From Calditrichota bacterium (GTDB lineage: Bacteria; Electryoneota; AABM5-125-24; Hatepunaeales; Hatepunaeaceae), in the NCBI GenBank assembly GCA_018644935.1, contig JABGPL010000005.1, positions 5,211 to 69,210 of the forward strand: a stretch of DNA of 64,000 nucleotides, read 5' to 3'. Every line of letters begins with the position of its first letter. Positions within the stretch are counted from its first letter, which is position 1. The notes under the pieces are model-generated. The model ran no database searches and was not told where the DNA came from. It was given only the letters and a program-made list of their open reading frames with translations. The translations under genes and the position numbers were made by a program. Below are positions 5,636-46,769 of this stretch, piece after piece.

Positions 5636-5716
5636 TTCACACTCCTGTAATTTTAATCTTTTCCAACGATTCACAATCAAATATCCAAAATCGAACTATT
5701 TGCAGTTTATCTAAAC

Positions 5717-15996: not shown

Positions 15997-16024
15997 GCAG
16001 CATTTCAACGAAGAGGAGAATTAC

Positions 16025-20939: not shown

Positions 20940-23900
20940 ATGAAACGATGTGTTCCAGTTCTTATTGCTGTAGTGCTTGTATTTATGAGCACTACGGCGT
21001 TCGGTCAGCATTTTGAATTTGTTCAGACCGACGTGAATGCCTCTAATCTGATCCTTTCAGCGACCATAAATGATGAGTCGTTAGTAGAAGGAGACGAAAT
21101 TGGCGTCTTTACACCAGGTGGTGTTTGTGCCGGTGCCGGCACAGTACCAGCTGGATTTCCTGATAATGCCCTTGGTGTTGCGGCTTGGGGTGCTGAACAG
21201 GGTCAACAAAACGGTTTTGCGGCCGGTAACGTTATTGAGTATCGACTATGGAGTGTTGACCTCAATGCAGAGATCACTGTCGCTGCCGACGATCGCCGGT
21301 TTGTAGCTGGTGATGGTGTTTGGGTTGGGAACGGCATGAATGTTGTAATGCTGTCAGCTCAACACGAAGTTATTCCAGTGCCAGTTATCGAGGTTAATCC
21401 CGCGAACATCAACTTTGGTGTAGTTTTAACTGGTGAGGAATCCATTGAGACCTTGACTATCACCAACACTGGCGAAGAGGTGTTGAACGTCGGTGATTTC
21501 GATGTCGCCAATATTGACGGTGAAGCATTTTCATTTAACATTGACATTCCTGATTTTCCCTGGGAATTCGTACAGACTGATAATAATATGTCAAACCTTA
21601 TTACCTCAGCACTCCTGAATGGAGAATCTTTGGTAGCTGGTGACTATGTTGGAGTCTTTACAACAAATGATCTTTGTGCTGGATTCGGTGTAGTTCCAGG
21701 AGCAAATGAAGGGATTGGTTTCCCTGCATGGGGAACGGAACAGGGTCAGAACAACGGATTCAACGTTGGAGAAGAAATGCAGTATCGGTTCTGGGATACT
21801 GAACAGGGACGGGAATACAATGCCGAAATCGGTCAGGTATTTGCCGGTGAAAATAATTATACCATCAATGGGATGTTTGTTGCAGTGCTTACAGCTGGTG
21901 ACGGGTTTATGCCTGCTATCGGTGGTTTTGAACTAGCCCCAGACGAATCATTTGAAATTGAAGTGCTATTCGCACCTGATGGAGTCGGTGAATTTACAGG
22001 TGAAATTGTTATTCCATCAGATGATCCTGACAATGAAGAAGTTGTAGTCGCACTACTCGGAAATGCGATTTTGCCGGATCCCGAAATCAGTCTTAATGTT
22101 GAAGGTCATGATTTTGGTGGTGTTCTTGTTGGCGAATCTGCCAATTGGACTTTTACAATTTCAAATGTTGGTGGTGGAGATTTAACAGTCGAATCCGCTG
22201 CAGTTACAGGTGATTTCTTTAGTGGCGATGGAGAAGATGGATTTGTTATCGCTGTTGGTGAAACACAGGATGTTACTGTGACATTTGCTCCTGAAGCAGG
22301 AGGCGATTTTGCTGGTGAAGTCACAATCACATCAGATGATCCGAACAATGGTTCTGTTGCTCTAAACCTTGCTGGTGTTGGTGAAGAAGAACCTGTACCT
22401 GAAATTAGTGTAGATGTTAATGCTCATGATTTCGGTTCTATTCTTATCGGAGAATCAGAAAATTGGACCTTCTCTATTGCAAATATAGGTAACGCTGAAT
22501 TAACTGTTGAATCCGCTGCAGTTACAGGTGATTTCTTTAGTGGCGACGGAGAAGATGGATTTGTAATCGCAGTTAATGAATCACAGGATGTAACAGTAGC
22601 ATTTGCTCCGGAAGAAGCAGGTGAATTCGGTGGTGAAGTTACAATAACTTCCGATGATCCAAACCAAAGAGTTGTTATTCTAGATCTGACTGGAGTTGGT
22701 GAGGTTGAGGCAATGCCTGACATCGCGGCAGATCCCGAAGCTATTGATTTCGGCGAGGTGTTCCTCGCTTTGGGTGATGATCAACCCAATATGGAAGAAG
22801 AAATCATTACAATCAGCAATGCTGGAGATGCTCCATTGACAGTCTTCGATGCTGTTCTTGAAGGTGATGGATTCTTCCTCGAAATAGACCTTGGTAATGG
22901 TGGCGGTGGTGAAGAATTCAATTGGGAATTCAGTCAAACTGATGCCAACATGTCTATTCTGGTTAGGGGAGCTACAATTAATGGAGAGGATCTGCAACCC
23001 GGTGATTATATAGGATCATTTACCGAAGCAGGCTTATGTGCAGGTTACTCTGAAGTTCAGGACGCTGGAGCCCAATTAGGTGTTCCCGCCTGGGGAGCTG
23101 AACAGGGTCAACAGAATGGTTTCCGTAACGGTGAAGCCATTGAAATGCGATTCTTTGATTCCGATCCCGGCAGAGAATATGTTGCCGAATATGCAGAAGT
23201 CCAACAAGGTGAGCCTAATTTCGTTGCAAACGGATTCCTTGCATGCGTGCTTTCAGTCGGTGATGGTTTTGTACCTGCCGAAGTAACACTGAATCCTGGT
23301 GAAGAAGTACAAGGCACAGTATTTTTTGGGCCGGTTGCTGAAGGTGAGCACAACGGTACAATAACCTTCTCCTCTGATGATCCAGATGGAGATTTGGTTG
23401 TAAATCTTACCGGAGTTGGTGTATTGCCAGCTGCGGAAATCATGGTTGATGCTGAAGGTCACGATTTCGGTGCCGTTATGGTAGGTGAATCAGCCGATTG
23501 GGCATTTAACATCTCTAATGTTGGTGGTGACGATTTAACTGTTCAAGCCATTGACGTAGTTGGAGATTTCTTCAGTGCCGATGCAGGTGATGGATTTGTC
23601 CTGGCTTCCGGTGAAATGCGTGAAGTGATGGTCACATTCGCACCCGAGGACGGTGGAGAATTTGATGGCTCAGTCACAATTATGTCAAATGATGAAGACG
23701 AAGCTGAAATTGTTCTCGGTCTTGCTGGTGTGGGTGAAGTAAACGAATTTCCTGTTATTGCCGTTGACGCAGAGGTAATTGACTTTGGTGACGTTATAGT
23801 TGGTGAGGGAGCAGATGATTTGCTCGTCATCAGTAATGAAGGAAACGCACCATTAACAATTATTGACGTTACCGTTGAAGGTGTAGGTTTCACAATTGAT

Positions 23901-26900
23901 GTTAATCTTGATGGTGGTGGTGGAGACGTTGAAGAATTCCCGTGGGAATTTGGTCAAACTGATATTAATATGTCAACACTGATTCAAGAAATCGATTTTA
24001 ATGGTGAGGTCTTAGGCGAAGGCAATTATGTAGGTGTCTTTACAGAGAATGGAACTTGCGCCGGATTTGGTGAAGTTTTCGATGCTGGTGAACAAATGGG
24101 TGTTCCAGCTTGGGGTGCAGAACAAGGCCAACAGAATGGATTTGTTGCCAACGAGGCAATTGAATTCAGAATCTGGGAAACAGATCCTGGGAGAGAATAT
24201 GTTGCGGATATCGAAGCCCTGAATGTTGCTCCTAATTGGGTTGGCAACGGCTTCCTCGTTTGTAACCTTTCAGTTGGTGGCGAAAATATGCCAGCCGAAT
24301 TAGTTCTTGAACCGGGAGCAACTCTTGAAGTTCCAGTATTTTTCAATCCTGAAGAAGAAATGGATTATGAAGGTGCAATAACAATTACATCAGATGATCC
24401 TGATAACGATATGGTTGTCGTTGGACTCATGGGTGTTGGTGTATTACTGACCCCGGAAATCGTCGTCAATGAAGAAGGATACGATTTCGGTGTTGTCGAA
24501 GTAGGTCAGATGGCTGACTGGAGTTTCAACATTGCAAACGTTGGTGAAGCCGACTTGAATGTTGAATCTGTAGTTATTGATGGAATGTATTTCTCAGTTG
24601 ATGTTGAGGAAGGTTTCGTTTTAGCCAGTGGTGAAGATCGTAATGTAGGCGTCATGTTTGAACCGGAGGATGCAGGTGAATTCGACGCTGTAGTTACCAT
24701 TACCTCAAATGACCCGGAAAATGGAGAAATTGTTCTCAATCTTACCGGTGTTGGTGAAGTTGTTGAAGTACCGAGCATTGCTGTTGACGCAGAGGTAATC
24801 GACTTTGGCGATGTATTGGTCGGAGAAGCAGCAGAAGATCTTCTTGTAATCAGTAACGAAGGTGGTGCGCCACTGACAATTATTGATGTTATGGTTGAAG
24901 GTGATGGATTCACAATTGATGTTGACCTTGGTGGTGATGTTGAGGAATTTAATTGGGAATATGCCCAAACCGACATCAATATGTCAACACTGATTCAAGA
25001 AATTGACTTTAATGGTGAGATCTTAGGCGAAGGAAATTATGTAGGTGTCTTTACGGAGAATGGAACTTGCGCCGGATTTGGTGAAGTTTCCGAAGCTGGT
25101 GAACAAATGGGTGTTCCAGCATGGGGTGCAGAACAAGGTCGGCAGAATGGATTTGTCGCTAATGAGCCAATTGAATTCAGAATCTGGGAAACAGATTCAG
25201 GAAGAGAATTTGTGGCGGAAATCGAAGCCCTTAACGTTGCACCAAATTGGGTTGGAAACGGCTTCCTCGTATGTAACCTTTCAGTTGGTGGAGATAACAT
25301 GCCAGCTGAATTAGTACTTGATCCAGGAGCTACGCTTGAAGTTCCAGTATTCTTCAATCCTGAAGCAGAAATGGATTATGAAGGTGCGATCACAATCGTT
25401 TCCGATGATCCTGACGATGACGTAGTCATGGTTCAGTTACTCGGTGTCGGTATGGTTGACGATGTCGAACAGTGGATCGGTTTCGATCCTGAAATGGTCG
25501 AATTTGCTCCAGTCATTATAGGAGAGCAAGGTGAAGAAATTCTGACAGTATTTAATATGTCCGAAGAAGAAGATCTTATGATTTCTGACCTTGTTATCGA
25601 TAATGATGTGTTCTCTATTGAAGATGGATTGCTTCAAGGTGAATTCGATTGGGCATTTGTACAAACGGACAATAACATGTCCATTATTGTACAAGATGCA
25701 GGCGTAAATGGAGATCAATTAGAAGCCGGTGATTACATCGGTGTGTTTACTGAAGATGGATTATGCGCAGGTTATACCGAAGTTCCCGAAGGATTATTCG
25801 GTGATGGCGGTGTTGGCGTTAGCGCATGGGGTTCAGAGCAAGACGCAAATAATGGTTTCGATCCTCAGGAAGATATTGAATTCCGAATTTGGGATACAGA
25901 TGCAGGAAGGCAATTTGTTGCCGATCCAGAAATCGCAATGGGAGAAGCTATTTTTGTATCAAACGGTTTCCTCGTACTTTCCGGATTAAATGGTGGTGGT
26001 GGTATGAATCCTGCTGATCTGGCAATTGAACCAGGTGGTTCGCTAGAAATCACAGTTTTCTTCGACCCTGAAGAAGACATTGAGTATAACGGATCTTTGA
26101 CCGTTATGTCCAATGATCCAGTTGTGCCCGAAGCAGTCGTTGACTTGATGGGTAACGGTTCATTGCCTGCTGCTAATATTGATGTCTCAGCTGAGGCATA
26201 TGACTTTGAAGGTGTGCATGTTGGTGATCCCGCTGACTGGACTTTCACCGTTTCTAACATCGGTGGTGGTAGTTTAACAGTTGAATCAGTAGTCACTGAT
26301 GGTGACGGATTTATGGACAACATGGATGAAGGATTTGTCTTGGAATCTGGAGCAAGTCAGGAAATTATGGTAACATTCTCGCCTGATGCACCTGAAGAAT
26401 ATGTAGGATCAGTTACAATCACTTCCAATGATGAAGATGAAGGCGAAGTGGTTATTGAATTAGATGGATTTGGTTTCCTTAATGCTCCAGTAATTACACT
26501 TTCTGCTGAAGCTTATGATTTCGGTGAATTGTTTGTTAATGATACCGATGAATGGTCATTTGAAATTGGCAACGATGGTGAGACCGATCTTAATGTAGAG
26601 GACATAACAGTTGAAGGAATGTACTTCTCCATTGATGAGGAGGGTGGATTCTCACTGGAACCAGGTGAAGTTGCGGAAGTAGTTGTAACATTTGCACCTG
26701 AAGATGCTGGTGAATTTGAAGGTATGATCACCATCGCAAGTGATGATCCTAATGGTGATGCAATGGTCGCTGTTGTTGGTTCCGCGGTATGGTACCCAAT
26801 GATCGCACTTGATCCGGATGATGTAATAGATTTCGGTGAATTATATATGAATGACCTCGGTGAAGCGATGGTCAATATTTCTAATCCAGGTGGTTCACCA

Positions 26901-29900
26901 TTAACCGTAAGCGACATCGTCGTTGAAGGTGATTACTTCTTTATGGAAGAGGGTGATGAACCGGGTGATTTCGATTGGGAATATGTTCAGACAGACGTTA
27001 ATATGTCCATTATTGTTCAGGACGCATCGATTGGTGGCGAACAAATCGTTGCCGGAGATGTTATTGGTGTCTTCACAGAAGAAGGTATGTGCGCAGGCTA
27101 CGCTGAAGTTCCAGAAGGTCTCTTCGGTGGTGGTGGTGTTGGTCTAAGTGCCTGGGGTACAGAACAGGGTGCAAATAACGGATTTGCAGTTGGCGAAGAT
27201 ATTGAATTCCAAATCTGGGATATGGAAGCCGGAATGGAGTTTGTCGCTGTACCGGAAATTGCAATGGGTGAAGCGGTTTATACAGGAAATGGTTTCTTGG
27301 TTCTTGCAGGTCTGAATGCAGAACGACAAATGATACCCGCATTTGAAGAAACAGTCATTGCGCCGGGAGAATCAATAGATGTTCCCGTGTTCTTCATGCC
27401 GGAAAATGCTGGTGAGTTTGACGGAATGTTAACGGTACTTTCAGATGCAAGAGATATGGAAGAAGTTTCAGTTGACCTCTTCGGTATTGGTCTATCCATG
27501 GTAATGATGAGTATTCCCGAATCACATGATTTTGGTGAATTGCTTGTTGGAGAATCGGCGGAATGGGTTTTTAGTATTGAGAACATTGGTGATGCCGACC
27601 TCAACATAGAGGCAGTTGCTCTTGAAGGAGCAGAATTCTCTATGGAAGGTGACGACGATGGTGGTGTACTTGAAGCCGGTGAGTTTTTCCTGCTTAGAGT
27701 TACATTTGAACCAGATCAAGCCGGTGATTTCGAGGCATTGGTAATAATAGAATCAAATGCACCTGAAAATGATGGTATTGCTACCATCTCACTTACAGGT
27801 TCAGCGGTTTGGTTCCCGATTATTCGTCTCGAACCAGCAGATGAAATCGACTTTGGTGCTGTTCCAATTGAAGAAGAAGTAGTTGAAATGCTTCGGATCT
27901 ACAACGATGGTCTTGCACCATTAGTTGTTGACGAGCTTCAGATTGACGGTGAGGGATTTTCTCTTGGCGCTTTCCAGGGAGAAGAACCTGGTGAATTTGA
28001 ATGGGAATTTGGTCAAACAGATGTCAACGCATCCATTCTTGTAACAGAAGCCACTATTGGTAATCAATCCCTTGTTGAGGGTGATGTCATTGGTGTATTC
28101 ACGGAAGAGGGGCTGTGCGCTGGTTATGCCATGGTTCCTGCTGATTTCCCGAATGAATCTGTTGGTATCCCTGCCTGGGGTGCAGAACAGGGTCAGAATA
28201 ACGGATTCCAAGTTGGCGAGGCCGTTGGTTATCGTTTCTGGGATGATGATGCTGGCAGAGAATTTGGCGCGAACGCCAATTATATGCAAGGCAATGGCAA
28301 CTGGGTTGGAAATGCGTTCTTTGTTGTCAGATTAAGTGCTGACGACGGTTTCGTTCCCATGGAAGCCGCAGAGATTATTGAACCTGAATCCTTCCTGGAT
28401 GTTGAGGTTTTCTTCCGTCCAGAAGCTTCTGGTGAATATGAAGGTAACATCACAGTAAATTCAAATGATCTTGAAAATGGTGAGCTGAATGTTCACTTAA
28501 TGGGTAATGGATTCGTATCGGCAATCATCACCGTTTCTGAAGAGGGACACGATTTTGGTGAACTTCTCGTAGGTGAAAATGCAGATTGGCAATTCACAGT
28601 TGGCAATGCAGGTGAAGCCGACTTAGAAGTTGAATCAATCAGAATTCTTGGGGATTACTACTCTCTGGTACCTGATGAAGCTTTTGTACTTGCTTCTGGA
28701 GAAGAACTTGAGTTTACAGTAACATTTGCACCTGAAGATGCTGGTGATGAGTTAAATGGTAATGTCGTAATTGTTTCCAACGATCCGGTTAACGGTGAAT
28801 TAGTCATGAACCTTACCGGTTCAGCACTTTGGTTCCCGATCATTGCACTTGATCCGGATGATGTTGTTGACTTTGGTGAGATGTTCGATGGTGGTGAAGT
28901 GGAAGAAGTTATTGTAATCACCAACGAAGGTCGGGCTCCTTTGACGATTGAAAATATCAGAGTTGCAGGAAACGGTTTCGCTTTAGGTGAAATGGATATG
29001 GGAGATCCAATTGTTCTCGAACCTGATGAATCATTTGAGGCTTCGGTTTTCTTCCAGCCTGATAATGAAGGTGAATTTAACGGAACCTTTACAGTCATTT
29101 CAGATGATCCTTCATTAGTCCACAGCAGAGGTAGGGTTATAGTTCGTCTGTCTGGTATTGGTTACTTTACGCCGGCAGATATTGATGTATCTGTGGAAGG
29201 ATTAGACTTTGAGGGTGTTGTTGTTGGTGAGAGTTCTACACTTGCTTTCACAATCGCTAACCTCGGTCAGTTACCTCTTGCAGTTGAAGGCGTCGTTCTT
29301 GAAGGTGAGTACTACTCTTCAGATGCAGAACGTGGCTTTGAAATTGGCAGAGATGGTGAAATGGCTGTTGAAATTACATTCGCACCAGAAATGCGTGGTG
29401 ATTTCGATGGCATGATCACAATCCTCTCAAACGATGAGGATTCACCTGAAGTAATGGTTAGTCTTGCCGGTATGGGTCTCGCGCCAGTTATCGACGTTGA
29501 TCCGTTGGCTATTGACTTTGGTCGAGTATTCATTGATGAAGAAGATAACCGTGAAATTGTAATCACCAACGAGGGTGATGCAGATCTGATTATCGCCGAA
29601 CTCATTCTTGACAATGAAGCATATTCCTTCGATCCGCCAGAACAAGGTGAATTTGATTGGGTATTCCAACAATCAGATGCCAGTATGAATGTTCTGGTTC
29701 TCGACGGTCATTTAGACGGTCGCGAGCTTGCTGCAGGTGATGTAATTGGTGTATTCACCGATGAAGGCATTTGTGGTGGTTTCGGTCTGGTTCCGGATGA
29801 TGTATTCGAGGCAGGTGTAGGAATTGCCGTCTGGGCAGATGAAGTTGGTGGTGAAGTCACCGGATTCGTAGCAAATCAAACGTTGAACTACCGAATCTGG

Positions 29901-32900
29901 GATGAGAGTGCCGCTCGTGAATATGCAGCAGATGCAGACTATATTCAGGGTAACGACTTCTTTGTTGCCAATGGATTTAGTGTGATCAACGTGACTGCCG
30001 GTAACGGATTTTTTGAACCTGCAGATCTTGCAATTGCACCGGGAGAATCTGAATCAATAATGCTGTACTTCCGTCCGCTTGATGGTATCGATTATGAAGC
30101 AACCCTTACAGTTGTAAATAACGATCCTGAAGCACCGGAAGTTGTGGTTGATATTATGGGTGAAGGTCGTTTCCATAATCAACCTCCAGTCTGGGTTGAT
30201 GTACCTGCCGAAATTCAAACTGATGAGGACACAGATTTCAACATGCTGTTCTCAGCTGAAGATCCTGATGATGATCCAATGACAATCACATTTGTGGATG
30301 TTGGAGGCAACCTGCCGGATGAAGCTATGTTTGAAGATAACGAAGATGGTACAGGTCTGTTCTCTTGGAGAACAAACTTTGAAGATGAAGGTGAATATGA
30401 ATTCAGCCTTACGGTTGCTGATAACTTCAATAATGAAGCAGTTGTTGAGGTTTCATTGACTGTTAATAACGTCAATCGTGCCCCGATCTGGCTTGATCCA
30501 ATTGAAACCGTCGAAGCATTTGAGGATGAGGAATTCGAAATTTTCATGGAATCAGTGGATCTGGATGGTGAAGATCTGACCGTTACAGTTGATTTCGAAT
30601 TTGAAGCCGATTTCGTTGATCACGAAGACGGTGCATTTACGTTTACTTGGAGACCGGACTATGATAAGGCCGGTGAGCATCTTGTAACATTTACGTCATC
30701 CGACGGTGATTTGTCCACTGATGCTGAAGTTGTAATCACAATCATCGATGTCAATCGCGCTCCAGAATTGGATTCTCCAATTGGTATGTTTGAGATGGAT
30801 GAAGACGGTGGCAGATCTGACATTGTCAATCTGGATGATGTTTTCTTCGATGCAGATGGTGATGAACTGATGTTTGATATCCTGAATATCGACAATCTCG
30901 GTTATCTTGGTCTTGAAATCGACGACAATAATGTTCTTAGTGTTGATCCTGAAGGAAACTACTTTGGTGAAACGGATATCACGATTATTGCAGATGATGG
31001 CGTAGATCAATTCGCGCTTGCACCAATGGGACTTAATAATGGTGCCGCTGCATTCTCTGCTTCACGAGTATTGAGCCGGTCTGTAAGAAGCATTAACAAT
31101 ACCCCGGCAGTCGGTCCTGACCGTGATGAAACGGTTAGTGATCGGTTTACGCTGGTTGTAAATTCAGTTAATGACATGCCCATAGTTGAAGCTGACCTTG
31201 AAGACGTTACCGTTGATGAGGATTCAGGATTAATCACAATCGATATTTCTGGTGTATTCAGTGATGTTGAAGATGATGATCTTGATTATTCAGTAATGGG
31301 TGCACCTGGCGAAATGAACGCAAACATCGCTGATGGTGAGTTAACTTTTGATCTTGATGAAAACTTCAACCACGCAGGTGGTGCTGAAATTACCGTCACC
31401 GCAGAGGATGATGATGGCGCTATGGCAGAAGTATCATTCATGGTCACAGTAAATCCTGTCAATGATGCTCCGGTAGTAAGCAGCCCAATTGATGATCAGG
31501 TGTTTAATGAAGATCCTGGTCGTCTAATCTTAGCAGACCTGGACGATGTCTTCTTTGATGTTGACGGTGATGATCTCGAATACACCTTCGAAACAGAAGG
31601 TGGGGATCGTCTTAACATGGGAATGGACGGCAACTACAACTTGTTCCTCAATCCCGATGAAGACTTTGTAACTCCTGACGCTCCAGTTCTGGTCACCTTG
31701 ACCGCAACTGATCCTGATGGTGAAACAGTAGTGTTTGAGTTCACAATTGCTATTCAACCGGTCAATGATGCACCGATTGTTGCAAATGCGATTAACAACG
31801 TTACAATTGATGAAGATTCACAGGCAATCATCATGACAGATCTCGATAATAATTTCGAAGATCCCGACGGTCAGATCCTGACATACGAAATTTCAGGTGC
31901 CCCTGACGAAGTTAACATGATTGTAAATGATGACAATGTACTGATTTTCCATCCAGATGCAGATTTCAACTTGCCGGATGGTGTTGATGTAACAATCACC
32001 GCCTCCGACCCGTTTGGTGAATCTGTTGATGATGTCTTCAGACTTGCGATTCGTGCGGTTAATGATGCACCGACATGGGTCGAATTCCCCGAGGATATTA
32101 TTGAGGGATTGGAAGGAGATGTTGTTGAATTTAGCTTGATTGCTAGTGACATTGACAGCGAAGATCTAATGATTGATTGGGTTGACGCTGATGGTATTGC
32201 TGTTGAATCGCTAACCGACAATAATGATGGAACGGCAAGTATTTCCTGGACACCTACATTTGAAGATGAGGGTGAATTCAACCCGATATTCAGTGTTTCT
32301 GACGGTCAGTTTGATGCTGAAGTTACGGTTAGCATTACAATTACAGATGTTCCGCAATTGCAGCACTTTGTTGATTTCATTCAAACGGGCACAAACCATT
32401 CAATTCTGATTGATCAAGTTGCGCTTGATGGAAATGACGTACCATCATTGTGGGAAGTTGGTGTGTTCAACGCAGAGGGCGTACTTGCAGGTGCATTCCT
32501 TTGGGATGCAGATGAAGGTCAAGTTGGTGGTCCGGTTTGGGGTGATGATCCTGACACTGATGATCCAGATGGTATGCGAGATAATGAAGAGATGTTATTC
32601 AAAATCTGGGATTTTGAAACTGATACCGAATTTGACGCAGTCGCTGAAATTATAGACGGTAGTGTTAATTGGACTGCCGACGGTTTCACGATATTGAATC
32701 TGAATTCATTTGAAATTCGTGATCTGAATATCAGCTTCACCTCTAACTGGAATATCATGTCCATGAATATTGTTCCTGAGGAACAATATTGGTCAGACCA
32801 TAGGATACATGGTCATACTATCGATGTCGTCCTAATGCTTGAACAACTTGCTGGTGATGGCGAAAACCATAATGTTCTTCTTATTAAGAATGACAGTGGC

Positions 32901-33941
32901 CGCTTCTATCACCCACGTTCAGGCTTCAAGAATCTGGATTATTGGGATACTGGTGAAGGTTATGCAATTCGCATGGAAGCCGCTATTGAAGGAACATGGA
33001 GTGGTTCACCAATACCGGTAAACACCCCCGTTACGGTTAGAAACGGATGGAACTATGTCCCGTACTATCCAAATTATGAGTTAACTGCAGTTAGGCCTGA
33101 CTTCTATGTGTTGTCAGATATTATTGGGAATGTACGTCTTGCGAAGAATGGCGCCGGTAGATTTATGGCACCGCAGGTTGGATTCTCAAACATGCCTCCA
33201 TGGGAAGAAGGTCAGGGTTATCAAGTCAAGATGCAGAATCTTGATGGAGCAACTGACTTCACCTATCCGGCAGAACCCGAAGAAGAAGTTGCAATGGTAG
33301 GATTTGGAACTGAAATGGGCAGACATTATATTGATCCTGTAAGTACAGGTGACAATATGAGTGTCTTGATTTCTTCAATTTCCGATTTCGTATTCAGCGC
33401 AGATGACCAAATCGCAGCCTACAGTGCCGATGGTAAAGTAGTTGGTACTTCAATGGTTGATGAAGAAGGCCGTTGTGGTATTGCTGTCTGGGGTACGGAT
33501 CAGACTTCTGAAGAGGTTAATGGTCTGCAACAGGGTGAAGCTTTCGAGCTGAAACTCTGGGATGCTGATCGTGGTGTTGAAGTATCATTAATGCCAACCG
33601 CAATTCTGGAAGGTAAACTTGAGTATGAGACCGACGGATTTGTAATGCTTGACCTCGGTGTCAAACCCGATGTTCCTGGAACATACTTCTTGTCCAGGGC
33701 ATATCCAAACCCGTTTAACTCAACAACCCGCCTGACATACGGAATGACAGAAGCTGGTCATGCTTCGGTGAGTGTGTTTGACATGAGTGGTCGTCTCGTC
33801 GCCAATCTGGTTGATGGTACAGTCGCTGCCGGTTACCACAATGTAGTTTGGGGTGGTGCCGATCTGGCAACAGGTGTCTACATGATTCAGTTTGAAGCTG
33901 CCGGATTCAAATCCGTTAGCAAGGTTGTGTTGATGAAGTAA
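20940..33941 (+). CDS. Giant (4,333-aa) T9SS-sorted repeat protein / putative adhesin
   Basis: ORF track 20823..33941. The start is set at ATG 20940 (MKRCVPVLIAVVLVFMSTTAFGQ signal peptide, GAAGG upstream). Contents: 11 NMS domains, about two dozen Ig-fold repeats of the ASH/choice-of-anchor-D kind (DFG.V.VGES..W.F.I.N.G...L.V.S...F......F.L..GE...V.V.F.P...G.F.G.V.I.S.D) and ~7 cadherin-like repeats bounded by VN(D/R)AP. These are followed by the GW-FY twin repeat (NWNIMSMNIV.../GWNYVPYYPN...), a last NMS domain and the CTD AYPNPFNSTTRLTYGM...GVYMIQFEAAGFKSVSKVVLMK. Confidence 0.9.
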   Translation: MKRCVPVLIAVVLVFMSTTAFGQHFEFVQTDVNASNLILSATINDESLVEGDEIGVFTPGGVCAGAGTVPAGFPDNALGVAAWGAEQGQQNGFAAGNVIEYRLWSVDLNAEITVAADDRRFVAGDGVWVGNGMNVVMLSAQHEVIPVPVIEVNPANINFGVVLTGEESIETLTITNTGEEVLNVGDFDVANIDGEAFSFNIDIPDFPWEFVQTDNNMSNLITSALLNGESLVAGDYVGVFTTNDLCAGFGVVPGANEGIGFPAWGTEQGQNNGFNVGEEMQYRFWDTEQGREYNAEIGQVFAGENNYTINGMFVAVLTAGDGFMPAIGGFELAPDESFEIEVLFAPDGVGEFTGEIVIPSDDPDNEEVVVALLGNAILPDPEISLNVEGHDFGGVLVGESANWTFTISNVGGGDLTVESAAVTGDFFSGDGEDGFVIAVGETQDVTVTFAPEAGGDFAGEVTITSDDPNNGSVALNLAGVGEEEPVPEISVDVNAHDFGSILIGESENWTFSIANIGNAELTVESAAVTGDFFSGDGEDGFVIAVNESQDVTVAFAPEEAGEFGGEVTITSDDPNQRVVILDLTGVGEVEAMPDIAADPEAIDFGEVFLALGDDQPNMEEEIITISNAGDAPLTVFDAVLEGDGFFLEIDLGNGGGGEEFNWEFSQTDANMSILVRGATINGEDLQPGDYIGSFTEAGLCAGYSEVQDAGAQLGVPAWGAEQGQQNGFRNGEAIEMRFFDSDPGREYVAEYAEVQQGEPNFVANGFLACVLSVGDGFVPAEVTLNPGEEVQGTVFFGPVAEGEHNGTITFSSDDPDGDLVVNLTGVGVLPAAEIMVDAEGHDFGAVMVGESADWAFNISNVGGDDLTVQAIDVVGDFFSADAGDGFVLASGEMREVMVTFAPEDGGEFDGSVTIMSNDEDEAEIVLGLAGVGEVNEFPVIAVDAEVIDFGDVIVGEGADDLLVISNEGNAPLTIIDVTVEGVGFTIDVNLDGGGGDVEEFPWEFGQTDINMSTLIQEIDFNGEVLGEGNYVGVFTENGTCAGFGEVFDAGEQMGVPAWGAEQGQQNGFVANEAIEFRIWETDPGREYVADIEALNVAPNWVGNGFLVCNLSVGGENMPAELVLEPGATLEVPVFFNPEEEMDYEGAITITSDDPDNDMVVVGLMGVGVLLTPEIVVNEEGYDFGVVEVGQMADWSFNIANVGEADLNVESVVIDGMYFSVDVEEGFVLASGEDRNVGVMFEPEDAGEFDAVVTITSNDPENGEIVLNLTGVGEVVEVPSIAVDAEVIDFGDVLVGEAAEDLLVISNEGGAPLTIIDVMVEGDGFTIDVDLGGDVEEFNWEYAQTDINMSTLIQEIDFNGEILGEGNYVGVFTENGTCAGFGEVSEAGEQMGVPAWGAEQGRQNGFVANEPIEFRIWETDSGREFVAEIEALNVAPNWVGNGFLVCNLSVGGDNMPAELVLDPGATLEVPVFFNPEAEMDYEGAITIVSDDPDDDVVMVQLLGVGMVDDVEQWIGFDPEMVEFAPVIIGEQGEEILTVFNMSEEEDLMISDLVIDNDVFSIEDGLLQGEFDWAFVQTDNNMSIIVQDAGVNGDQLEAGDYIGVFTEDGLCAGYTEVPEGLFGDGGVGVSAWGSEQDANNGFDPQEDIEFRIWDTDAGRQFVADPEIAMGEAIFVSNGFLVLSGLNGGGGMNPADLAIEPGGSLEITVFFDPEEDIEYNGSLTVMSNDPVVPEAVVDLMGNGSLPAANIDVSAEAYDFEGVHVGDPADWTFTVSNIGGGSLTVESVVTDGDGFMDNMDEGFVLESGASQEIMVTFSPDAPEEYVGSVTITSNDEDEGEVVIELDGFGFLNAPVITLSAEAYDFGELFVNDTDEWSFEIGNDGETDLNVEDITVEGMYFSIDEEGGFSLEPGEVAEVVVTFAPEDAGEFEGMITIASDDPNGDAMVAVVGSAVWYPMIALDPDDVIDFGELYMNDLGEAMVNISNPGGSPLTVSDIVVEGDYFFMEEGDEPGDFDWEYVQTDVNMSIIVQDASIGGEQIVAGDVIGVFTEEGMCAGYAEVPEGLFGGGGVGLSAWGTEQGANNGFAVGEDIEFQIWDMEAGMEFVAVPEIAMGEAVYTGNGFLVLAGLNAERQMIPAFEETVIAPGESIDVPVFFMPENAGEFDGMLTVLSDARDMEEVSVDLFGIGLSMVMMSIPESHDFGELLVGESAEWVFSIENIGDADLNIEAVALEGAEFSMEGDDDGGVLEAGEFFLLRVTFEPDQAGDFEALVIIESNAPENDGIATISLTGSAVWFPIIRLEPADEIDFGAVPIEEEVVEMLRIYNDGLAPLVVDELQIDGEGFSLGAFQGEEPGEFEWEFGQTDVNASILVTEATIGNQSLVEGDVIGVFTEEGLCAGYAMVPADFPNESVGIPAWGAEQGQNNGFQVGEAVGYRFWDDDAGREFGANANYMQGNGNWVGNAFFVVRLSADDGFVPMEAAEIIEPESFLDVEVFFRPEASGEYEGNITVNSNDLENGELNVHLMGNGFVSAIITVSEEGHDFGELLVGENADWQFTVGNAGEADLEVESIRILGDYYSLVPDEAFVLASGEELEFTVTFAPEDAGDELNGNVVIVSNDPVNGELVMNLTGSALWFPIIALDPDDVVDFGEMFDGGEVEEVIVITNEGRAPLTIENIRVAGNGFALGEMDMGDPIVLEPDESFEASVFFQPDNEGEFNGTFTVISDDPSLVHSRGRVIVRLSGIGYFTPADIDVSVEGLDFEGVVVGESSTLAFTIANLGQLPLAVEGVVLEGEYYSSDAERGFEIGRDGEMAVEITFAPEMRGDFDGMITILSNDEDSPEVMVSLAGMGLAPVIDVDPLAIDFGRVFIDEEDNREIVITNEGDADLIIAELILDNEAYSFDPPEQGEFDWVFQQSDASMNVLVLDGHLDGRELAAGDVIGVFTDEGICGGFGLVPDDVFEAGVGIAVWADEVGGEVTGFVANQTLNYRIWDESAAREYAADADYIQGNDFFVANGFSVINVTAGNGFFEPADLAIAPGESESIMLYFRPLDGIDYEATLTVVNNDPEAPEVVVDIMGEGRFHNQPPVWVDVPAEIQTDEDTDFNMLFSAEDPDDDPMTITFVDVGGNLPDEAMFEDNEDGTGLFSWRTNFEDEGEYEFSLTVADNFNNEAVVEVSLTVNNVNRAPIWLDPIETVEAFEDEEFEIFMESVDLDGEDLTVTVDFEFEADFVDHEDGAFTFTWRPDYDKAGEHLVTFTSSDGDLSTDAEVVITIIDVNRAPELDSPIGMFEMDEDGGRSDIVNLDDVFFDADGDELMFDILNIDNLGYLGLEIDDNNVLSVDPEGNYFGETDITIIADDGVDQFALAPMGLNNGAAAFSASRVLSRSVRSINNTPAVGPDRDETVSDRFTLVVNSVNDMPIVEADLEDVTVDEDSGLITIDISGVFSDVEDDDLDYSVMGAPGEMNANIADGELTFDLDENFNHAGGAEITVTAEDDDGAMAEVSFMVTVNPVNDAPVVSSPIDDQVFNEDPGRLILADLDDVFFDVDGDDLEYTFETEGGDRLNMGMDGNYNLFLNPDEDFVTPDAPVLVTLTATDPDGETVVFEFTIAIQPVNDAPIVANAINNVTIDEDSQAIIMTDLDNNFEDPDGQILTYEISGAPDEVNMIVNDDNVLIFHPDADFNLPDGVDVTITASDPFGESVDDVFRLAIRAVNDAPTWVEFPEDIIEGLEGDVVEFSLIASDIDSEDLMIDWVDADGIAVESLTDNNDGTASISWTPTFEDEGEFNPIFSVSDGQFDAEVTVSITITDVPQLQHFVDFIQTGTNHSILIDQVALDGNDVPSLWEVGVFNAEGVLAGAFLWDADEGQVGGPVWGDDPDTDDPDGMRDNEEMLFKIWDFETDTEFDAVAEIIDGSVNWTADGFTILNLNSFEIRDLNISFTSNWNIMSMNIVPEEQYWSDHRIHGHTIDVVLMLEQLAGDGENHNVLLIKNDSGRFYHPRSGFKNLDYWDTGEGYAIRMEAAIEGTWSGSPIPVNTPVTVRNGWNYVPYYPNYELTAVRPDFYVLSDIIGNVRLAKNGAGRFMAPQVGFSNMPPWEEGQGYQVKMQNLDGATDFTYPAEPEEEVAMVGFGTEMGRHYIDPVSTGDNMSVLISSISDFVFSADDQIAAYSADGKVVGTSMVDEEGRCGIAVWGTDQTSEEVNGLQQGEAFELKLWDADRGVEVSLMPTAILEGKLEYETDGFVMLDLGVKPDVPGTYFLSRAYPNPFNSTTRLTYGMTEAGHASVSVFDMSGRLVANLVDGTVAAGYHNVVWGGADLATGVYMIQFEAAGFKSVSKVVLMK
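21007..30000 (+). repeat. In-frame array of nine ~115-aa NMS-domain modules separated by 1-6 Ig-like domains
   Basis: Module starts (F/W-E-F-x-Q-T-D-x-N-M/A-S) are at about nt 21010, 21558, 22916, 23936, 24947, 25645, 26971, 27997 and 29650. Two further copies lie at about 32360 and 33340. Confidence 0.85.
23757..25436 (+). repeat. Recent tandem duplication inside the giant gene (two ~670-bp copies, ~90% nt identity by eye)
   Basis: Lines 23761 and 24781 align base for base (offset 1020). After a 9-nt indel near 23915 the offset becomes 1011 (24001 vs 25012). The mirrored spurious antisense ORFs 24026-24346 and 25037-25357 have identical length and near-identical sequence. Confidence 0.85.
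30171..32350 (+). repeat. About seven cadherin-like / He_PIG-like Ig repeats delimited by VN(D/R)AP
   Basis: Boundaries: HNQPPVW, VNRAPIW, VNRAPEL, VNDMPIV, VNDAPVV, VNDAPIV, VNDAPTW. Internal acidic DxDGDxL / DxDxDD motifs are typical of Ca-binding cadherin-like bacterial repeats. Confidence 0.65.
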
Positions 33942-43334: not shown

Positions 43335-46300
43335 ATGAAACAAGCTCTACTGCTTCTTTCCGTATCCTTTTTTATTGTCGTTTTAATTGCAGTACCAGGT
43401 CACGCTCAATTCGAGCTTTTATGGGGAAGAGGAAATCCGATGGGGATGGGCAATATCCATGGAGTTACCGTTGATCCCGAAACTGGACACCTATATATAA
43501 CTCATTTCGCCGACCAGAGTATACACCATTTTGATGAAGATCTTGAACATGTCGAAACATTCAATATCGGCCTGGGAGGGATACGCGGTTTGGGATTCGA
43601 CACTCAAGAGAACCAATTGATTGTCGCAAACGGTGGAAACATCAGAATATTGAACCTTAATGGTGAATTATTAAGGACCTTTGCGAACAATGGTGGTTCC
43701 AATACAGTTGACCACGATCCTGAACGCGACTTATATGTCGTGGGACGATTTGGTGGAGCAGTTGCCTATTTTAACCGGGATGGTGAACAAGTTGGTGGTT
43801 TTGATTCAGGTGTAAACATCACGGGCATTTGCTATTATCCGATAAACGGCACAATATTCGCCATGGACACAGACGATCCGGTTTCCGAATTCACGATAGA
43901 AGGCGAGCGTATTGGAGAGCCTTTACAAGGCGACCAGATCGTTGAAAATGGTCAAGATCTTGCATATGATTCCAGACAACGTATTCTGTATGCAACAGGC
44001 CAGGTCGCATGGCTTGGTGCTTTTGAAGATAATTATGGTGCGGTGGGAGAACCTGAGGTTAATCCTGAAGGATTCGATCTACAGGTGCCGTTTGGCATGG
44101 CAGGAGAGGAAGTGCTGGTTATTACCAATGTTGGTGAGGAGGGTAGTTCGCTTTCATTTGAAATTGAAGATGTTGGAGAAGGAGTCGATTGGCTGGAATG
44201 CGATCCCACTGAGGGTGAACTGGAGTTAGATGAATCCGCTGAAATTACACTAACAATTGCTACTGAGGATCTTCAACCTGGTAATGTTCAGCGCACGATT
44301 ATTGTTCACACAAACTCTCCAGATTTCAGAGAGGTAGAAATTCCGGTTGCTCTGATGGTGATAGCAGGATTTGGTGAGCTGAGCGGCACAGTTACCGACG
44401 CTGCAAATGACAACCCAATTGAGGGAGCAACAATAACAGTTGAGAACTTCAATCTTGAGGCAGTATCGGATGAAAACGGTAGGTATGTTATCCCCGAAAT
44501 CCCTGAATGGATATTTACAGTGAGTATTACTGCCGAAGATTATCTTCCACAAACAATGTTAGAAATCGAAATTATTGAAGACGAGGTTACCAATTTGGAT
44601 TTCGATATGCTCCATTCGATAGGTGACCTTTCTCTTGAACAAATATCAGAAGAAATCCCAGTCGATGAGGAAGTTGAAATTCCGGTAAACCTGGCAAACC
44701 CTGGAAATGGTCCGTTAACATGGTCTGTTGAGAGAGTATTTCCTGAGGGAATGGAAGCAGATCCTTGGGATTCGCGTGAAGTGTATGCTGCTGGGGATAT
44801 ATTGGAAAATAACCGTCTTGGTGGTGTTGAATTCGTAGATGGTAATTTTTATGTTGCTGGTGGATTATCTGACGGTGAAAACCAAATATACGTTCTTAAT
44901 CGTGATGGGGAACTTGTTCGACAATTCAACCAATTTCAGGATTCAAGGTATGGTTTTCGGGATTTAACTTATGATGGAAATCTGCTCTGGGGAATAGATG
45001 ACAACATAGTGCATGGCTTCACTACCCGAGGGGAGTTGGATGTCACTTTTGATGCTCCTGTCCGCAGTGCTCGTGGGATAACCTGGGATCGAGAGAATGA
45101 GCTACTCTGGATATGTGGAATCACAAGTGACATTTTTGGAGTGAATCGTAATGGTGAAATTGTCAGAGAAATCGAGCGGCCCGGTGATGTGAGAATGTAT
45201 GGACTCGCATGGTACCCTGATGATGCAGATGGTTACAATCTGTATATGTTCTGTAGTAACGGTGAATTTAACCGTCAGATATTCAAGTTCGATCTTGAGA
45301 ACGAGCAAGTCGTTTTTGTCGCGGAACCGGATCTTGAAGGTTCGGCCGGGGCAGCAACCATAACTCGTGCTTGGGACCCCTTTAGCTGGGTGTTTCTGAC
45401 CATTACAAATTCCCCTGATTATATTGAGATCCTGCATATAGAAGCACCGACTGGCTGGGTTGGTATTGAACCCATTGATGGTGTTCTTGATGCAGGCGAA
45501 GATATGGACATGGCGGTCAACCTCAATACATTCGGTTTCCCGGTAAATATTGAATTCACTGTTGATCTTGTTTTTACACACGATGGTGTAGGTGGTGAGA
45601 CCATTCTTCCTGTTTTATTGACTGCTTCAGGGGATGAAGGTCCTGAAGTAAGAACTCTCCGCATGGATTTTGGATGGAATATGGTTTCTGTAAATGTTGT
45701 GCCGGAGAGTGATGATGTGGTTGCAATTACTCAAACGCTTGTTGATGGAGAGCTGATGGAAATGATGAAAAACGGTTCAGGTCAATTCTACAGCCCAGCA
45801 TTCGGTTTTAATAATATCCCTGGATGGGAAGTTACCGACGGTTACTTGATTAAGACAACTGAGGATTGTGAGTTGGAAATTGAGGGTATGCCGGTTGCAG
45901 CAGATGAAGCAATTCCACTGACAGCCGGTTGGCAGATGAAGGGTTATTTCCCTCGTGTTTCGGTTGAAGCTACAGTCGCACTTTCGGGTATCGTTGAAAA
46001 CCTCGAAATGGCAAAAGACGGATCAGGTCGTTTCTACAGTCCTGCCTTTGGATTCAGCAACATGGGAGATTTGATGGAAGGTTTCGGATATATGCTGAAG
46101 ATGTCTGAAGCAATGGATCTTGTTTATGTTGTCGAAGAGAACCGATTAGCACAGAGCAGGATAGTCCCTGGATTTCTACCGATTTTAAAGCCTACAGCAG
46201 AAAACATGAGCCTTCTCGTCTTGCAGGATGTCTCTGCGGAATTTATCGAAATTGGCGTCTACGCAAACAATATTCTTGTCGGATCAGGTCATGCATCTGG

Positions 46301-46769
46301 TGAATCCTGCGGGATTGCTGTTTGGGGTGATGACCCGACGACTACTTCTCGAGATGGTTCGTTGAAGGGAGACAATCTCGAGCTGCGTTTCACGAACGAA
46401 ACCGGGAGGAATGTCTCATTCGATTTCGTAACGATTTCGGGAAATGAATTTTACCAACACGATGAACTCTGGGTCGTGGAGCTCAATAATCTTATTTCAA
46501 TTCCTGATGAATTTGGCATAGTCTCAGCATATCCAAATCCATTTAACAGCACAACTCAAATATCATTTAGATTAACCGAATCGGGTAAGATAGATTTGGC
46601 ATTATTCGATCTGAGTGGACGTCAGGTCCTTGATTTGATTACCGGTCAGTACAAAGCTGGACTTCATACCGTTACGCTTGATGGTTCAAGCCTTTCAAGT
46701 GGCTTTTACCTTGCAAAATTAAATTCTACAGAGGGCAGCTCGAAATTGAAACTCTCATTCATTAAGTAG
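43335..46769 (+). CDS. T9SS-sorted surface protein, stalk-family paralog (group B; NHL/YncE-like propeller head)
   Basis: 1144 aa with signal peptide MKQALLLLSVSFFIVVLIAVPGHAQ. Head blades: VDPETGHLYITH, FDTQENQLIVAN, HDPERDLYVVG, YDSRQRILYATG. Stalk: GELSGTVTDAANDNPIEGATITV, LANPGNGPLTW, NRLGGVEFVDGNFYVAGG...RMYGLAWYPDDADGYNLYMF, GW-FY twin repeat (45649-46139), NMS domain (AENMSLLVLQD...CGIAVWGDDPTT). The CTD is AYPNPFNSTTQISFRL...GFYLAKLNSTEGSSKLKLSFIK (about 46528-46766). Confidence 0.85.
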   Translation: MKQALLLLSVSFFIVVLIAVPGHAQFELLWGRGNPMGMGNIHGVTVDPETGHLYITHFADQSIHHFDEDLEHVETFNIGLGGIRGLGFDTQENQLIVANGGNIRILNLNGELLRTFANNGGSNTVDHDPERDLYVVGRFGGAVAYFNRDGEQVGGFDSGVNITGICYYPINGTIFAMDTDDPVSEFTIEGERIGEPLQGDQIVENGQDLAYDSRQRILYATGQVAWLGAFEDNYGAVGEPEVNPEGFDLQVPFGMAGEEVLVITNVGEEGSSLSFEIEDVGEGVDWLECDPTEGELELDESAEITLTIATEDLQPGNVQRTIIVHTNSPDFREVEIPVALMVIAGFGELSGTVTDAANDNPIEGATITVENFNLEAVSDENGRYVIPEIPEWIFTVSITAEDYLPQTMLEIEIIEDEVTNLDFDMLHSIGDLSLEQISEEIPVDEEVEIPVNLANPGNGPLTWSVERVFPEGMEADPWDSREVYAAGDILENNRLGGVEFVDGNFYVAGGLSDGENQIYVLNRDGELVRQFNQFQDSRYGFRDLTYDGNLLWGIDDNIVHGFTTRGELDVTFDAPVRSARGITWDRENELLWICGITSDIFGVNRNGEIVREIERPGDVRMYGLAWYPDDADGYNLYMFCSNGEFNRQIFKFDLENEQVVFVAEPDLEGSAGAATITRAWDPFSWVFLTITNSPDYIEILHIEAPTGWVGIEPIDGVLDAGEDMDMAVNLNTFGFPVNIEFTVDLVFTHDGVGGETILPVLLTASGDEGPEVRTLRMDFGWNMVSVNVVPESDDVVAITQTLVDGELMEMMKNGSGQFYSPAFGFNNIPGWEVTDGYLIKTTEDCELEIEGMPVAADEAIPLTAGWQMKGYFPRVSVEATVALSGIVENLEMAKDGSGRFYSPAFGFSNMGDLMEGFGYMLKMSEAMDLVYVVEENRLAQSRIVPGFLPILKPTAENMSLLVLQDVSAEFIEIGVYANNILVGSGHASGESCGIAVWGDDPTTTSRDGSLKGDNLELRFTNETGRNVSFDFVTISGNEFYQHDELWVVELNNLISIPDEFGIVSAYPNPFNSTTQISFRLTESGKIDLALFDLSGRQVLDLITGQYKAGLHTVTLDGSSLSSGFYLAKLNSTEGSSKLKLSFIK

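Follow-up and report, generated by a model that had tools for sequence, protein, structure and literature searches.

The question raised by the locus described here is what purpose is served by a protein module of about 115 residues that recurs 18 times in 64 kb of bacterial DNA, most often within a single giant protein. The DNA, referred to below as the window, is a stretch of 64,000 nucleotides from a Calditrichota bacterium (GenBank assembly GCA_018644935.1, contig JABGPL010000005.1, positions 5,211 to 69,210 of the forward strand). An initial annotation, made by eye, had named the module NMS and had proposed it to be an apparently undescribed domain that acts as a surface-display or binding unit. 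We regard it as essentially certain that NMS is a real and distinct domain that is absent from the libraries searched. For its function we favour, by analogy with adhesins of other bacteria, a ligand-binding module that would be displayed laterally from the giant protein, a reading which has about an even chance of being right.

The giant protein is a surface protein secreted through a type IX secretion system (T9SS) and is encoded by a single gene, the product of which (4333 aa) is 99.98% identical to a database protein of equal length. The open reading frame (ORF) determined mechanically for this gene opens at TTG 20823 and not at ATG 20940; we assign the start to the latter because both the database homologue and the signal peptide point there, and the first 39 or so codons of the listed ORF (20823-20939) probably form an untranslated leader. 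The protein has a Sec signal peptide, MKRCVPVLIAVVLVFMSTTAFGQ, and further consists of 11 NMS copies, about 18 choice-of-anchor-D immunoglobulin-like (Ig) domains of which eight are split, a Big_9/cadherin-like region, a double repeat (the GW double repeat) and a T9SS type A C-terminal sorting domain (CTD). The Ig, cadherin-like and CTD families are the only known families in Pfam and NCBIfam that are matched anywhere along its length.

20940..33941, + strand, giant T9SS-secreted surface protein (family matches, database homologue)
33675..33938, + strand, T9SS type A CTD of the giant protein (profile match)

Around the giant gene are seven complete genes of one paralogous family, the stalk paralogs, and an eighth that is cut by the end of the window. 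The initial annotation had counted 18 copies of NMS, with 11 in the giant protein and one preceding the CTD in every stalk paralog. This is borne out: a regular-expression search, alignment by MAFFT and a six-frame hmmsearch agree on exactly 18 copies, of which the giant protein holds 11 and each of the seven complete paralogs holds one, ahead of its CTD. A profile of the 18 copies and a family-wide profile identify the identical set, and neither finds anything better than E ~1 in the rest of the window. The range first given for the module, 21007-30000, holds nine of the 11 copies of the giant protein, while the two others lie downstream of it, at 32361-32714 and 33321-33665. The copies in the giant protein, followed by those in the paralogs, are located as follows (six-frame hmmsearch).

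21003-21365, + strand, copy 1, type A, immediately behind the signal peptide (AFGQ/HFEF), not nested
21552-21902, + strand, copy 2
22914-23264, + strand, copy 3
23934-24281, + strand, copy 4
24945-25292, + strand, copy 5
25641-25997, + strand, copy 6
26967-27323, + strand, copy 7
27993-28346, + strand, copy 8
29649-30005, + strand, copy 9, N-x-S lost (SDASMNV)
32361-32714, + strand, copy 10 (QTGTNHS), in line, following the Big_9/cadherin-like region and preceding the GW double repeat
33321-33665, + strand, copy 11, type B, paralog-like, flanked by the GW repeat and the CTD
2414-2734 and 5990-6310, - strand, paralog copies
46170-46496, 49641-49970, 53535-53852, 57143-57460 and 60648-60965, + strand, paralog copies

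The homology of the two types of copy, A and B, is not a circular result, because a hidden Markov model (HMM) built from either type detects the other: that from the seven paralog copies alone recovers 9 of the 11 copies of the giant protein (19-66 bits), and that from giant-protein copies 1-9 alone recovers all of the paralog copies (17-50 bits). Copies 9-11 are top-scoring with the paralog-only HMM and therefore bridge the giant-protein and paralog versions. The consensus sequences that had been drawn up by eye for both versions proved accurate when compared with the MAFFT alignment, and so did the statement that N-x-S is kept in 17 of 18 copies, with the exception near 29650 (copy 9). Nine of the 18 possess the longer motif D/E-x-N-x-S (eight copies of the giant protein and one of the paralogs). 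Copies 4 and 5 are about 90% identical, whereas the eight nested copies share about 50% on average, which points to a recent duplication, within the gene, of a supermodule of about 1 kb that comprises split Ig domain, NMS and Ig domain.

No known family could be assigned to NMS. Searches of Pfam-A (2025 copy) and NCBIfam (release 20) by hmmscan, with six window copies, all 18 copies, 10 relatives and 48 diverse family instances as queries, gave nothing better than E 0.03 and no recurring family, and the best match of NMS profiles to PDB sequences was at E 1.1. AlphaFold2, for which the 18 window copies were the only alignment input, models NMS as a beta-sandwich of seven strands (predicted local distance difference test, pLDDT, 96; predicted template modelling score, pTM, 0.89). 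When this model was compared by Foldseek with PDB, there were no matches at E<=1e-3 (best E 0.044, template modelling (TM) scores 0.33-0.43), and the same applied to BFVD (best E 0.019). The top neighbours in PDB, none of them significant, were CnaB2, FlgD, UafA and an intradiol-dioxygenase domain, and the non-significant entries 2x5p, 3osv, 3is1 and 4ilv had probabilities of 0.7-0.87; this indicates the generic prealbumin-like sandwich class rather than a family. We also found no account of the module in the literature on the host phylum, on 'choice-of-anchor D' and on domains preceding the CTD in T9SS proteins. The earlier claim of an apparently undescribed domain thus holds for Pfam, NCBIfam and PDB sequences and for structural neighbours in PDB and BFVD.

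A number of known domains were considered as identities for NMS and rejected. There is a superficial likeness to the CTD and to FlgD-Ig (…VYD..GR.V… vs …GVY..G.LVG…), but a diverged duplicate of the T9SS CTD (PF18962 / TIGR04183) or of FlgD-Ig is contradicted by an hhalign probability of 2.2% against the 10 CTDs of the window; NMS is, moreover, N-terminal to a separate, bona fide CTD. For a CarboxypepD_reg/transthyretin-like domain, hhalign gave <=0.2% against the eight CarboxypepD_reg domains of the window paralogs and Foldseek a TM score of <=0.43, and at most the same broad fold class is shared. NMS itself is not a choice-of-anchor D / HYDIN-ASH Ig domain (NF012200, PF22544), the Ig profile of which matches the flanks and not NMS. 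The top Foldseek neighbour, CnaB2, brings to mind a thioester, isopeptide or ester cross-link domain, which was rejected on the sequence alone, as the profile has no conserved Lys, no Cys-Gln pairing motif and no conserved last-strand Gln. A catalytic His/Cys site like that of sortases or L,D-transpeptidases was rejected as well: the window copies have Met and not His, type B is devoid of the Cys, and no structural match was obtained.

NMS is widespread in T9SS-secreted cell-surface proteins of candidate phyla of the Fibrobacteres-Chlorobi-Bacteroidetes (FCB) group. The family was revealed by an exhaustive HMM search of 1.84 billion cluster representatives, which returned 5,959 proteins at E<=1e-3, of which 2,760 reach E<=1e-10 and 418 reach E<=1e-30; other homologue searches with two NMS profiles gave 17 and 2 matches, mostly short fragments. 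Many members are giants, with lengths of up to 7,635 aa and up to 15 NMS copies each. Architectures were counted in the best 167 of the 5,959 proteins, which hold 653 NMS instances. A CTD motif is found at the end of 125 of the 167, the first NMS copy directly follows the signal peptide in 102, and in 82 the last copy ends about 90 aa from the C-terminus, immediately before the CTD. The partner domains in 51 mid-size members are dominated by the CTD (34) and by HYDIN-type Ig domains (28), enzymes being rare. As NMS is unmodelled, the proteins that carry it bear names that refer to the T9SS sorting domain or to other domains; the only NCBI names seen were 'PKD domain-containing protein' and 'choice-of-anchor D domain-containing protein'.

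Most of the copies in the giant protein occupy an unusual position. Copies 2-9 are each flanked by two half matches of an iterated Ig profile, the upstream one covering profile positions 1 to ~63 and the downstream one ~64 to 100. The upstream half reads …IDFG.V..G……L.I.N.G.APL.I.D..VEG.GF… and the downstream half …P.EL.L.PG….V.V.F.P…..Y.G.I.I.SDDPD…, and Gly-rich linkers connect both of them to NMS. When NMS was excised in silico, one contiguous full-length Ig match was obtained in all eight units (E 1e-17 to 5e-27), so that NMS is nested within a single split Ig domain in each case.

21378..22031, + strand, nested unit 1: Ig N-half 21378-21533, NMS copy 2, Ig C-half 21924-22031
22716..23387, + strand, nested unit 2: Ig N-half 22716-22874, NMS copy 3, Ig C-half 23289-23387
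23751..24404, + strand, nested unit 3: Ig N-half 23751-23894, NMS copy 4, Ig C-half 24303-24404
24771..25415, + strand, nested unit 4: Ig N-half 24771-24914, NMS copy 5, Ig C-half 25314-25415
25641..26120, + strand, nested unit 5: NMS copy 6, Ig C-half 26025-26120
26796..27449, + strand, nested unit 6: Ig N-half 26796-26939, NMS copy 7, Ig C-half 27354-27449
27828..28469, + strand, nested unit 7: Ig N-half 27828-27965, NMS copy 8, Ig C-half 28377-28469
29481..30131, + strand, nested unit 8: Ig N-half 29481-29612, NMS copy 9, Ig C-half 30033-30131

The Ig N-half of unit 5 is diverged, lies just upstream of 25641 and is seen only in the unit-level excision test. The remaining copies of the giant protein are not nested, copy 1 being terminal, copy 10 in line, and copy 11 placed between GW repeat and CTD. 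The split-Ig context is found in 62 further instances in relatives.

It is this nesting that leads us to favour ligand binding, as insertion into a split Ig domain is a mark of ligand-binding domains in the RTX (repeats-in-toxin) adhesins (PMC12077191). Ligand-binding domains of these proteins are recognised because they bud from split Ig-like companion domains; the two termini of such a domain lie side by side, and its binding site is at the greatest distance from the junction (PMC12077191). Projected ligand-binding domains occur in the RTX adhesins AhLap, FrhA and MpIBP, which are exported by the type I secretion system (T1SS) (PMC12077191, PMC10865825; Graham et al. 2024, as cited there). 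By analogy, the choice-of-anchor-D Ig-like domains of the giant protein would form a rod that is anchored C-terminally through the T9SS. Eight NMS domains would branch off sideways, each of them via Gly-rich linkers in the same loop of a split Ig domain, and a ninth, at the mature N-terminus, would occupy the tip farthest from the C-terminal anchor. Each domain would have its termini at one pole and, at the opposite and outward-facing pole, conserved polar and aromatic motifs as a putative ligand-binding site. From this we infer that the giant protein may be a multivalent adhesin. The earlier view of NMS as a surface-display or binding unit is supported and also sharpened, given the eight copies inserted in split Ig domains. 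The ligand could, at a guess, be a glycan or another component of a particle or cell surface, and it is likewise a guess that the acidic loop W-G-D-D…D-G-F..G-E might provide for Ca2+-assisted binding.

The polarity of the domain was derived from coevolution, by mean-field direct-coupling analysis (DCA) of 557 family instances. Strand 1 is coupled to strand 4 in antiparallel (12-60, 14-58, 16-56) and to strand 7 in parallel orientation (13-110, 15-112, 22-116), and the conserved aromatic N-terminal segment, residues 2-6, contacts 32, 42 and 45 and runs back along strand 3 towards 32. Because residues 2-6 are thus near 32 and 45, and 116 is near 22, the N and C termini are placed at one pole, as is required of a nested domain. 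Further couplings connect the conserved motifs with each other (9-70, 11-104, 61-104, 61-107, 38-73, 37-72 and 43-72). The family motifs are T-[DG]-x-N-[HM]-[ST], F-T-P-x-G-x-C, W-G-D-[DE]-x-x-T-x-x-x-[DN]-G-F-x-x-G-E and G-x-x-x-[YFW]-x-x-N-G, and the conserved loop residues are T9, N12, H/M13 and S/T14; F36, T37, P38, G40 and C42; W60, G61, D62, D/E63, T66, D70, G71, F72, G75 and E76; and G100, Y/F/W104, N107 and G108. The couplings taken together with the strand order suggest that the most conserved of these residues cluster at the pole opposite the termini, and the eponymous NMS motif would thus belong to this distal cluster. Position 13, the His or Met of that motif (Met in copy 2, nt ~21585-21587), has the second strongest of all couplings, with residue 110 of the last strand; family-wide, His dominates in internal copies and Met in pre-CTD and N-terminal copies.

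In addition, NMS is more conserved than the domain that carries it. The mean identity is 50% among the eight nested copies and 38% among the host Ig domains, with which they have presumably been duplicated together, and NMS is higher in 28 of 28 pairs; since these pairs are not independent, the difference is an indication and not a formal test.

This constraint bears on a rival explanation, namely that NMS has a structural role only: as a brace or spacer it would make the Ig rod stiffer or thicker and, in the C-terminal cassette described below, keep the head at a distance from the membrane. Its conserved residues would then serve folding or Ca2+-dependent rigidity and not the binding of a ligand. 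Such a function is compatible with a family that is found mostly in non-enzymatic, repeat-rich proteins, with the many instances that are tandem or in line between complete Ig domains, and with a generic beta-sandwich that weakly resembles the CnaB, FlgD and transthyretin-like stalk domains. However, a domain whose termini are at the same pole and which is joined to a loop by flexible Gly-rich linkers makes a poor in-line spacer, its sequence is conserved above that of its host scaffold, and the conservation is concentrated in loops which appear to lie at the pole away from the junction. We therefore consider a purely structural role unlikely, if deserving of attention.

A second idea of the initial annotation was that D-x-N-x-S at the start of the domain is an N-glycosylation sequon of the PglB type, so that NMS would be an acceptor displaying an N-glycan. 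N-x-S in 17 of the 18 window copies, D-x-N-x-S in 8 of the 11 giant-protein copies and the interchange of S (55%) and T (17%) at +2 throughout the family can be quoted in its favour. Among 574 family instances, however, N-x-S/T is kept in 59% and D/E-x-N-x-S/T in just 27%; the Asn is replaced by S or D in many (the commonest triplets are NMS, NHS, NHT and SHS), and the acidic residue at -2 is missing in 6 of the 7 paralog copies. The middle position, which is free in a sequon, is conserved (H 47%, M 29%; H or M 76%), and a sequon has no need of its strong coupling with strand 7 (13-110). In the model, the Asn is placed not in a flexible loop but as the first residue of strand 1, which has pLDDT>90 and, by coevolution, pairs with strand 4 (12-60, 14-58). 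The ORFs of the 64-kb window include no oligosaccharyltransferase gene of the STT3/PglB type. Systems of the PglB type occur in Campylobacterota and in some Desulfobacterota but are not known from the FCB group, which also counts against glycosylation. The sequon interpretation is thus not supported, and it is very unlikely that NMS acts as a glycan acceptor.

Another possibility is that His/Met13 and the single Cys42 of type A constitute a metal-binding or reactive thiol centre. There are grounds for raising it in that 76% of the family instances have H or M, 75% have C, and weak Foldseek matches include the copper proteins CueP and CopC (ranks 38 and 47). These matches are, however, non-significant (E > 0.5), type B has L or V in place of Cys42 and its Cys elsewhere or none at all, and position 13 covaries with its packing partner in strand 7, as a core residue would. 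We thus see very little likelihood of a metal- or thiol-dependent site.

Several points also weigh against the reading that we favour, ligand binding by a laterally displayed module. The nested context, with its 62 further instances, is the less frequent one in the family, where NMS more commonly lies between complete Ig domains (91), in self-tandem (~94) or at a terminus, so that lateral display is not universal. The higher conservation of NMS could be due to folding constraints or to gene conversion, and the exposure of the conserved pole is derived from strand order and coevolution and not from coordinates. The binding role itself is drawn from architecture and analogy, the structure searches having yielded no homologue whose ligand is known. 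Finally, RTX adhesins have one to three different ligand-binding domains near the tip and not eight of one kind along the shaft.

Outside the split Ig domains, NMS has a second regular setting, the tail of the stalk paralogs. The type B copy found there constitutes a positional subfamily with Met at 13, no Cys42 and a strongly kept W-G-D-D, and in every case it forms the final globular part of a cassette in which the GW double repeat is followed by NMS and the CTD. The GW double repeat has about 165 residues, in two repeats of ~85 aa (GWNMVS…KNG.G.FY.P.F.FNN..W..GY, twice); it has no Pfam match and is apparently a second unmodelled domain. The giant protein also ends with this cassette, which is preceded by copy 10.

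32712..33269, + strand, GW double repeat of the giant protein (no Pfam match)
2144..3265, - strand, cassette of paralog 2141..5680: GW 2777-3265, NMS type B 2414-2734, CTD 2144-2410
5720..6856, - strand, cassette of paralog 5717..9715: GW 6368-6856, NMS type B 5990-6310, CTD 5720-5986
45639..46766, + strand, cassette of paralog 43335..46769: GW 45639-46133, NMS 46170-46496, CTD 46500-46766
49104..50237, + strand, cassette of paralog 46782..50240: GW 49104-49595, NMS 49641-49970, CTD 49974-50237
52998..54122, + strand, cassette of paralog 50289..54125: GW 52998-53492, NMS 53535-53852, CTD 53859-54122
56609..57730, + strand, cassette of paralog 54245..57733: GW 56609-57100, NMS 57143-57460, CTD 57467-57730
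60111..61235, + strand, cassette of paralog 57759..61238: GW 60111-60605, NMS 60648-60965, CTD 60972-61235
61253..64000, + strand, eighth paralog (partial), signal peptide …VNWVSAQ, cut inside the GW repeat (63629-64000)

The NMS copy and CTD of the eighth paralog would lie beyond the end of the window, and the paralog array is therefore longer than the window. The cassette is present in 62 of the 167 family proteins; the GW double repeat occurs in 68 of the 167, almost always as part of it. The type B signature GIA[VI]WGDD was found at 127 places in one-genome-per-species GTDB, 76 loci of which were kept, from ten metagenome-assembled genomes (MAGs) with up to 25 such loci per genome, and the cassette is present in 67 of the 76. 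These related MAGs include Ca. Hatepunaea meridiana (phylum Ca. Electryoneota), 'Calditrichaeota bacterium AABM5.125.24', the label of which corresponds to AABM5-125-24, the former name of that phylum, and other 'Calditrichaeota' and unclassified bins. The window, too, most likely stems from this lineage. As this locus search was made with a type B alignment and samples the GIA[VI]WGDD subtype only, the taxonomic breadth of type A is represented by a few named proteins (Calditrichota, Ca. Delongbacteria).

AlphaFold2 modelled the cassette with a mixed alpha/beta GW unit (pLDDT ~80-90), linkers of pLDDT 33-60 and a pTM of 0.55. A rigid NMS-CTD unit is not supported by these values, which suggest that the three domains would instead be arranged like beads on a string, and Foldseek with the cassette model produced only generic tandem-Ig matches and the RgpB CTD entry 5ag8. 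We envisage that the paralogs carry a constant cassette beneath variable heads, in which NMS would come to lie next to the outer-membrane anchor once the CTD has been processed. With dozens of paralogs per genome, the cassette may be a lineage-specific elaboration of T9SS surface anchoring. The initial annotation had termed the position of NMS beside the CTD obligatory, and this is correct for the paralog family with its conserved cassette. It does not extend to all CTD cargo in the window, as two further T9SS-CTD proteins (34915-37800 and the C25 peptidase 39311-43033, both on the - strand) are without NMS, so that the module is not obligatory for T9SS cargo.

The presence of related modules on neighbouring proteins raises the possibility that NMS is an assembly module, comparable to cohesin, which would bind another NMS, or else the GW repeat, and by which the giant protein would act as scaffold for the co-located paralogs. 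Eight paralog genes that share the cassette flank the giant gene, types A and B are distinct and position-specific subfamilies, and NMS is found on both sides of the GW repeat in many proteins, all of which speaks for such a system. A row of small secreted proteins in another organism (ENA ERZ24794666, NODE_328, 126 kb; positions 5601-8513 and 12461-12784) presents the same parts separately: a CTD-only protein (183 aa), two of Ig plus NMS (278 and 276 aa), one of NMS only (170 aa) and then a 107-aa NMS-only ORF. An N-terminal motif of about 22 aa, IHxGxEExxFxLADVDSIxF, is common to four of the five, being absent from the 107-aa ORF. Since these NMS proteins have no CTD of their own but adjoin one that is CTD-only and shares their motif, they are a hint of non-covalent assembly and add a little to the case. 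On the other hand, the cassette model has no confident packing between domains (pTM 0.55) and many family members have NMS without either a GW repeat or a type B partner, and we consider the idea rather improbable. Its complete, scaffoldin-like form, in which the type A copies on the Ig rod dock the type B copy or the GW-NMS cassette of each paralog, strikes us as distinctly improbable. If it were true, dozens of heads (FG-GAP, propeller and peptidase-like) would be organised on one fibre, and a cellulosome-like principle would have arisen from a new fold in the candidate phylum Electryoneota and its relatives.

Some other genes of the window deserve mention. The C25 peptidase is gingipain-like and consists of propeptide, Peptidase_C25, CarboxypepD_reg and CTD; the CarboxypepD_reg domain and a similar-looking region next to it are shared with the stalk paralogs, while the GW-NMS cassette is lacking, and the paralog body plan has therefore been joined to different tails. 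Directly upstream of the giant gene are two adjoining DUF3857 / transglutaminase-like (DUF3858) genes (15995-18067 and 18064-20103, + strand). Citrate lyase genes are located at 10149-12922 (- strand), in the form of two ORFs that share about 20 nt: one is citF (alpha subunit), and the other is a fusion of the acyl-carrier subunit (gamma, PF06857) with the beta subunit (HpcH/HpaI).

With some 6,000 protein clusters, NMS is a sizeable domain that has no Pfam or NCBIfam model and no relative of known structure, and many of the proteins concerned are among the largest bacterial surface proteins. Defining NMS and the GW double repeat as families would improve the annotation of the 'dark matter' genomes of the FCB group. 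If NMS does bind ligands, the rule that a split domain marks a ligand-binding domain would be carried over from RTX adhesins of the T1SS to adhesins of the T9SS. Being small and confidently modelled, the domain also lends itself to studies of what these marine and anoxic-zone bacteria adhere to.

Among known systems, cellulosome scaffoldins resemble the locus in that one very large protein of many modules is encoded beside proteins with variable heads that carry one related module each. The cohesin/dockerin pair, however, consists of unrelated folds with demonstrated binding, whereas NMS partners would be homologous beta-sandwiches, and the comparison is one of analogy only; neither sequence (Pfam, NCBIfam, PDB) nor structure searches (Foldseek against PDB and BFVD) gave a match of NMS to cohesin. 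In size, strand number and use in bacterial stalks, NMS is similar to prealbumin/transthyretin-like sandwiches such as CnaB, the FlgD Ig-like domain, CarboxypepD_reg and intradiol dioxygenase. It differs from them in that TM scores are at 0.33-0.43 with E >= 0.04, no HMM matches, and strands 1 and 7 are predicted to be parallel, with both termini at one pole.

The domain that precedes the CTD in the gingipain RgpB and other T9SS cargo, of the immunoglobulin superfamily (IgSF), has the same position, as NMS too is a beta-sandwich immediately N-terminal to a CTD of type A and would stay membrane-proximal after CTD removal; the RgpB CTD entry 5ag8 is also among the top tandem-sandwich matches of the cassette model. 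In contrast to the IgSF domain, with which it has no sequence relationship, NMS is accompanied by the GW double repeat in every type B case of this lineage. It is also seen far away from the CTD, at N-termini and where there is no CTD at all.

The closest parallel is that with RTX adhesins. In both cases the inserted domain sits in a loop of a beta-sandwich extender, within a giant, fibrillar and mostly Ig-like surface protein, and in both its termini are adjacent and its conserved features appear to be away from the junction (for NMS as judged from couplings and strand order, without coordinates). The giant protein is nevertheless not itself an RTX adhesin, a possibility that was rejected because it has a Sec signal peptide, a T9SS CTD and no RTX family match. 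It is anchored by its C-terminus with the N-terminus as tip, unlike the RTX adhesins of the T1SS with their N-terminal retention module, and it carries eight copies of a single domain along the shaft and one at the tip. Its split host is a choice-of-anchor-D (ASH/HYDIN-type) Ig domain, and in PDB searches the fold of NMS matches none of the domains known to be inserted in this way (PA14, carbohydrate-binding module, vWFA, RTX roll). NMS is thus a new domain family of a familiar kind, a beta-sandwich adhesin module presented from split Ig domains, and what is new for such modules is the T9SS secretion context and the unusual, reiterated arrangement.

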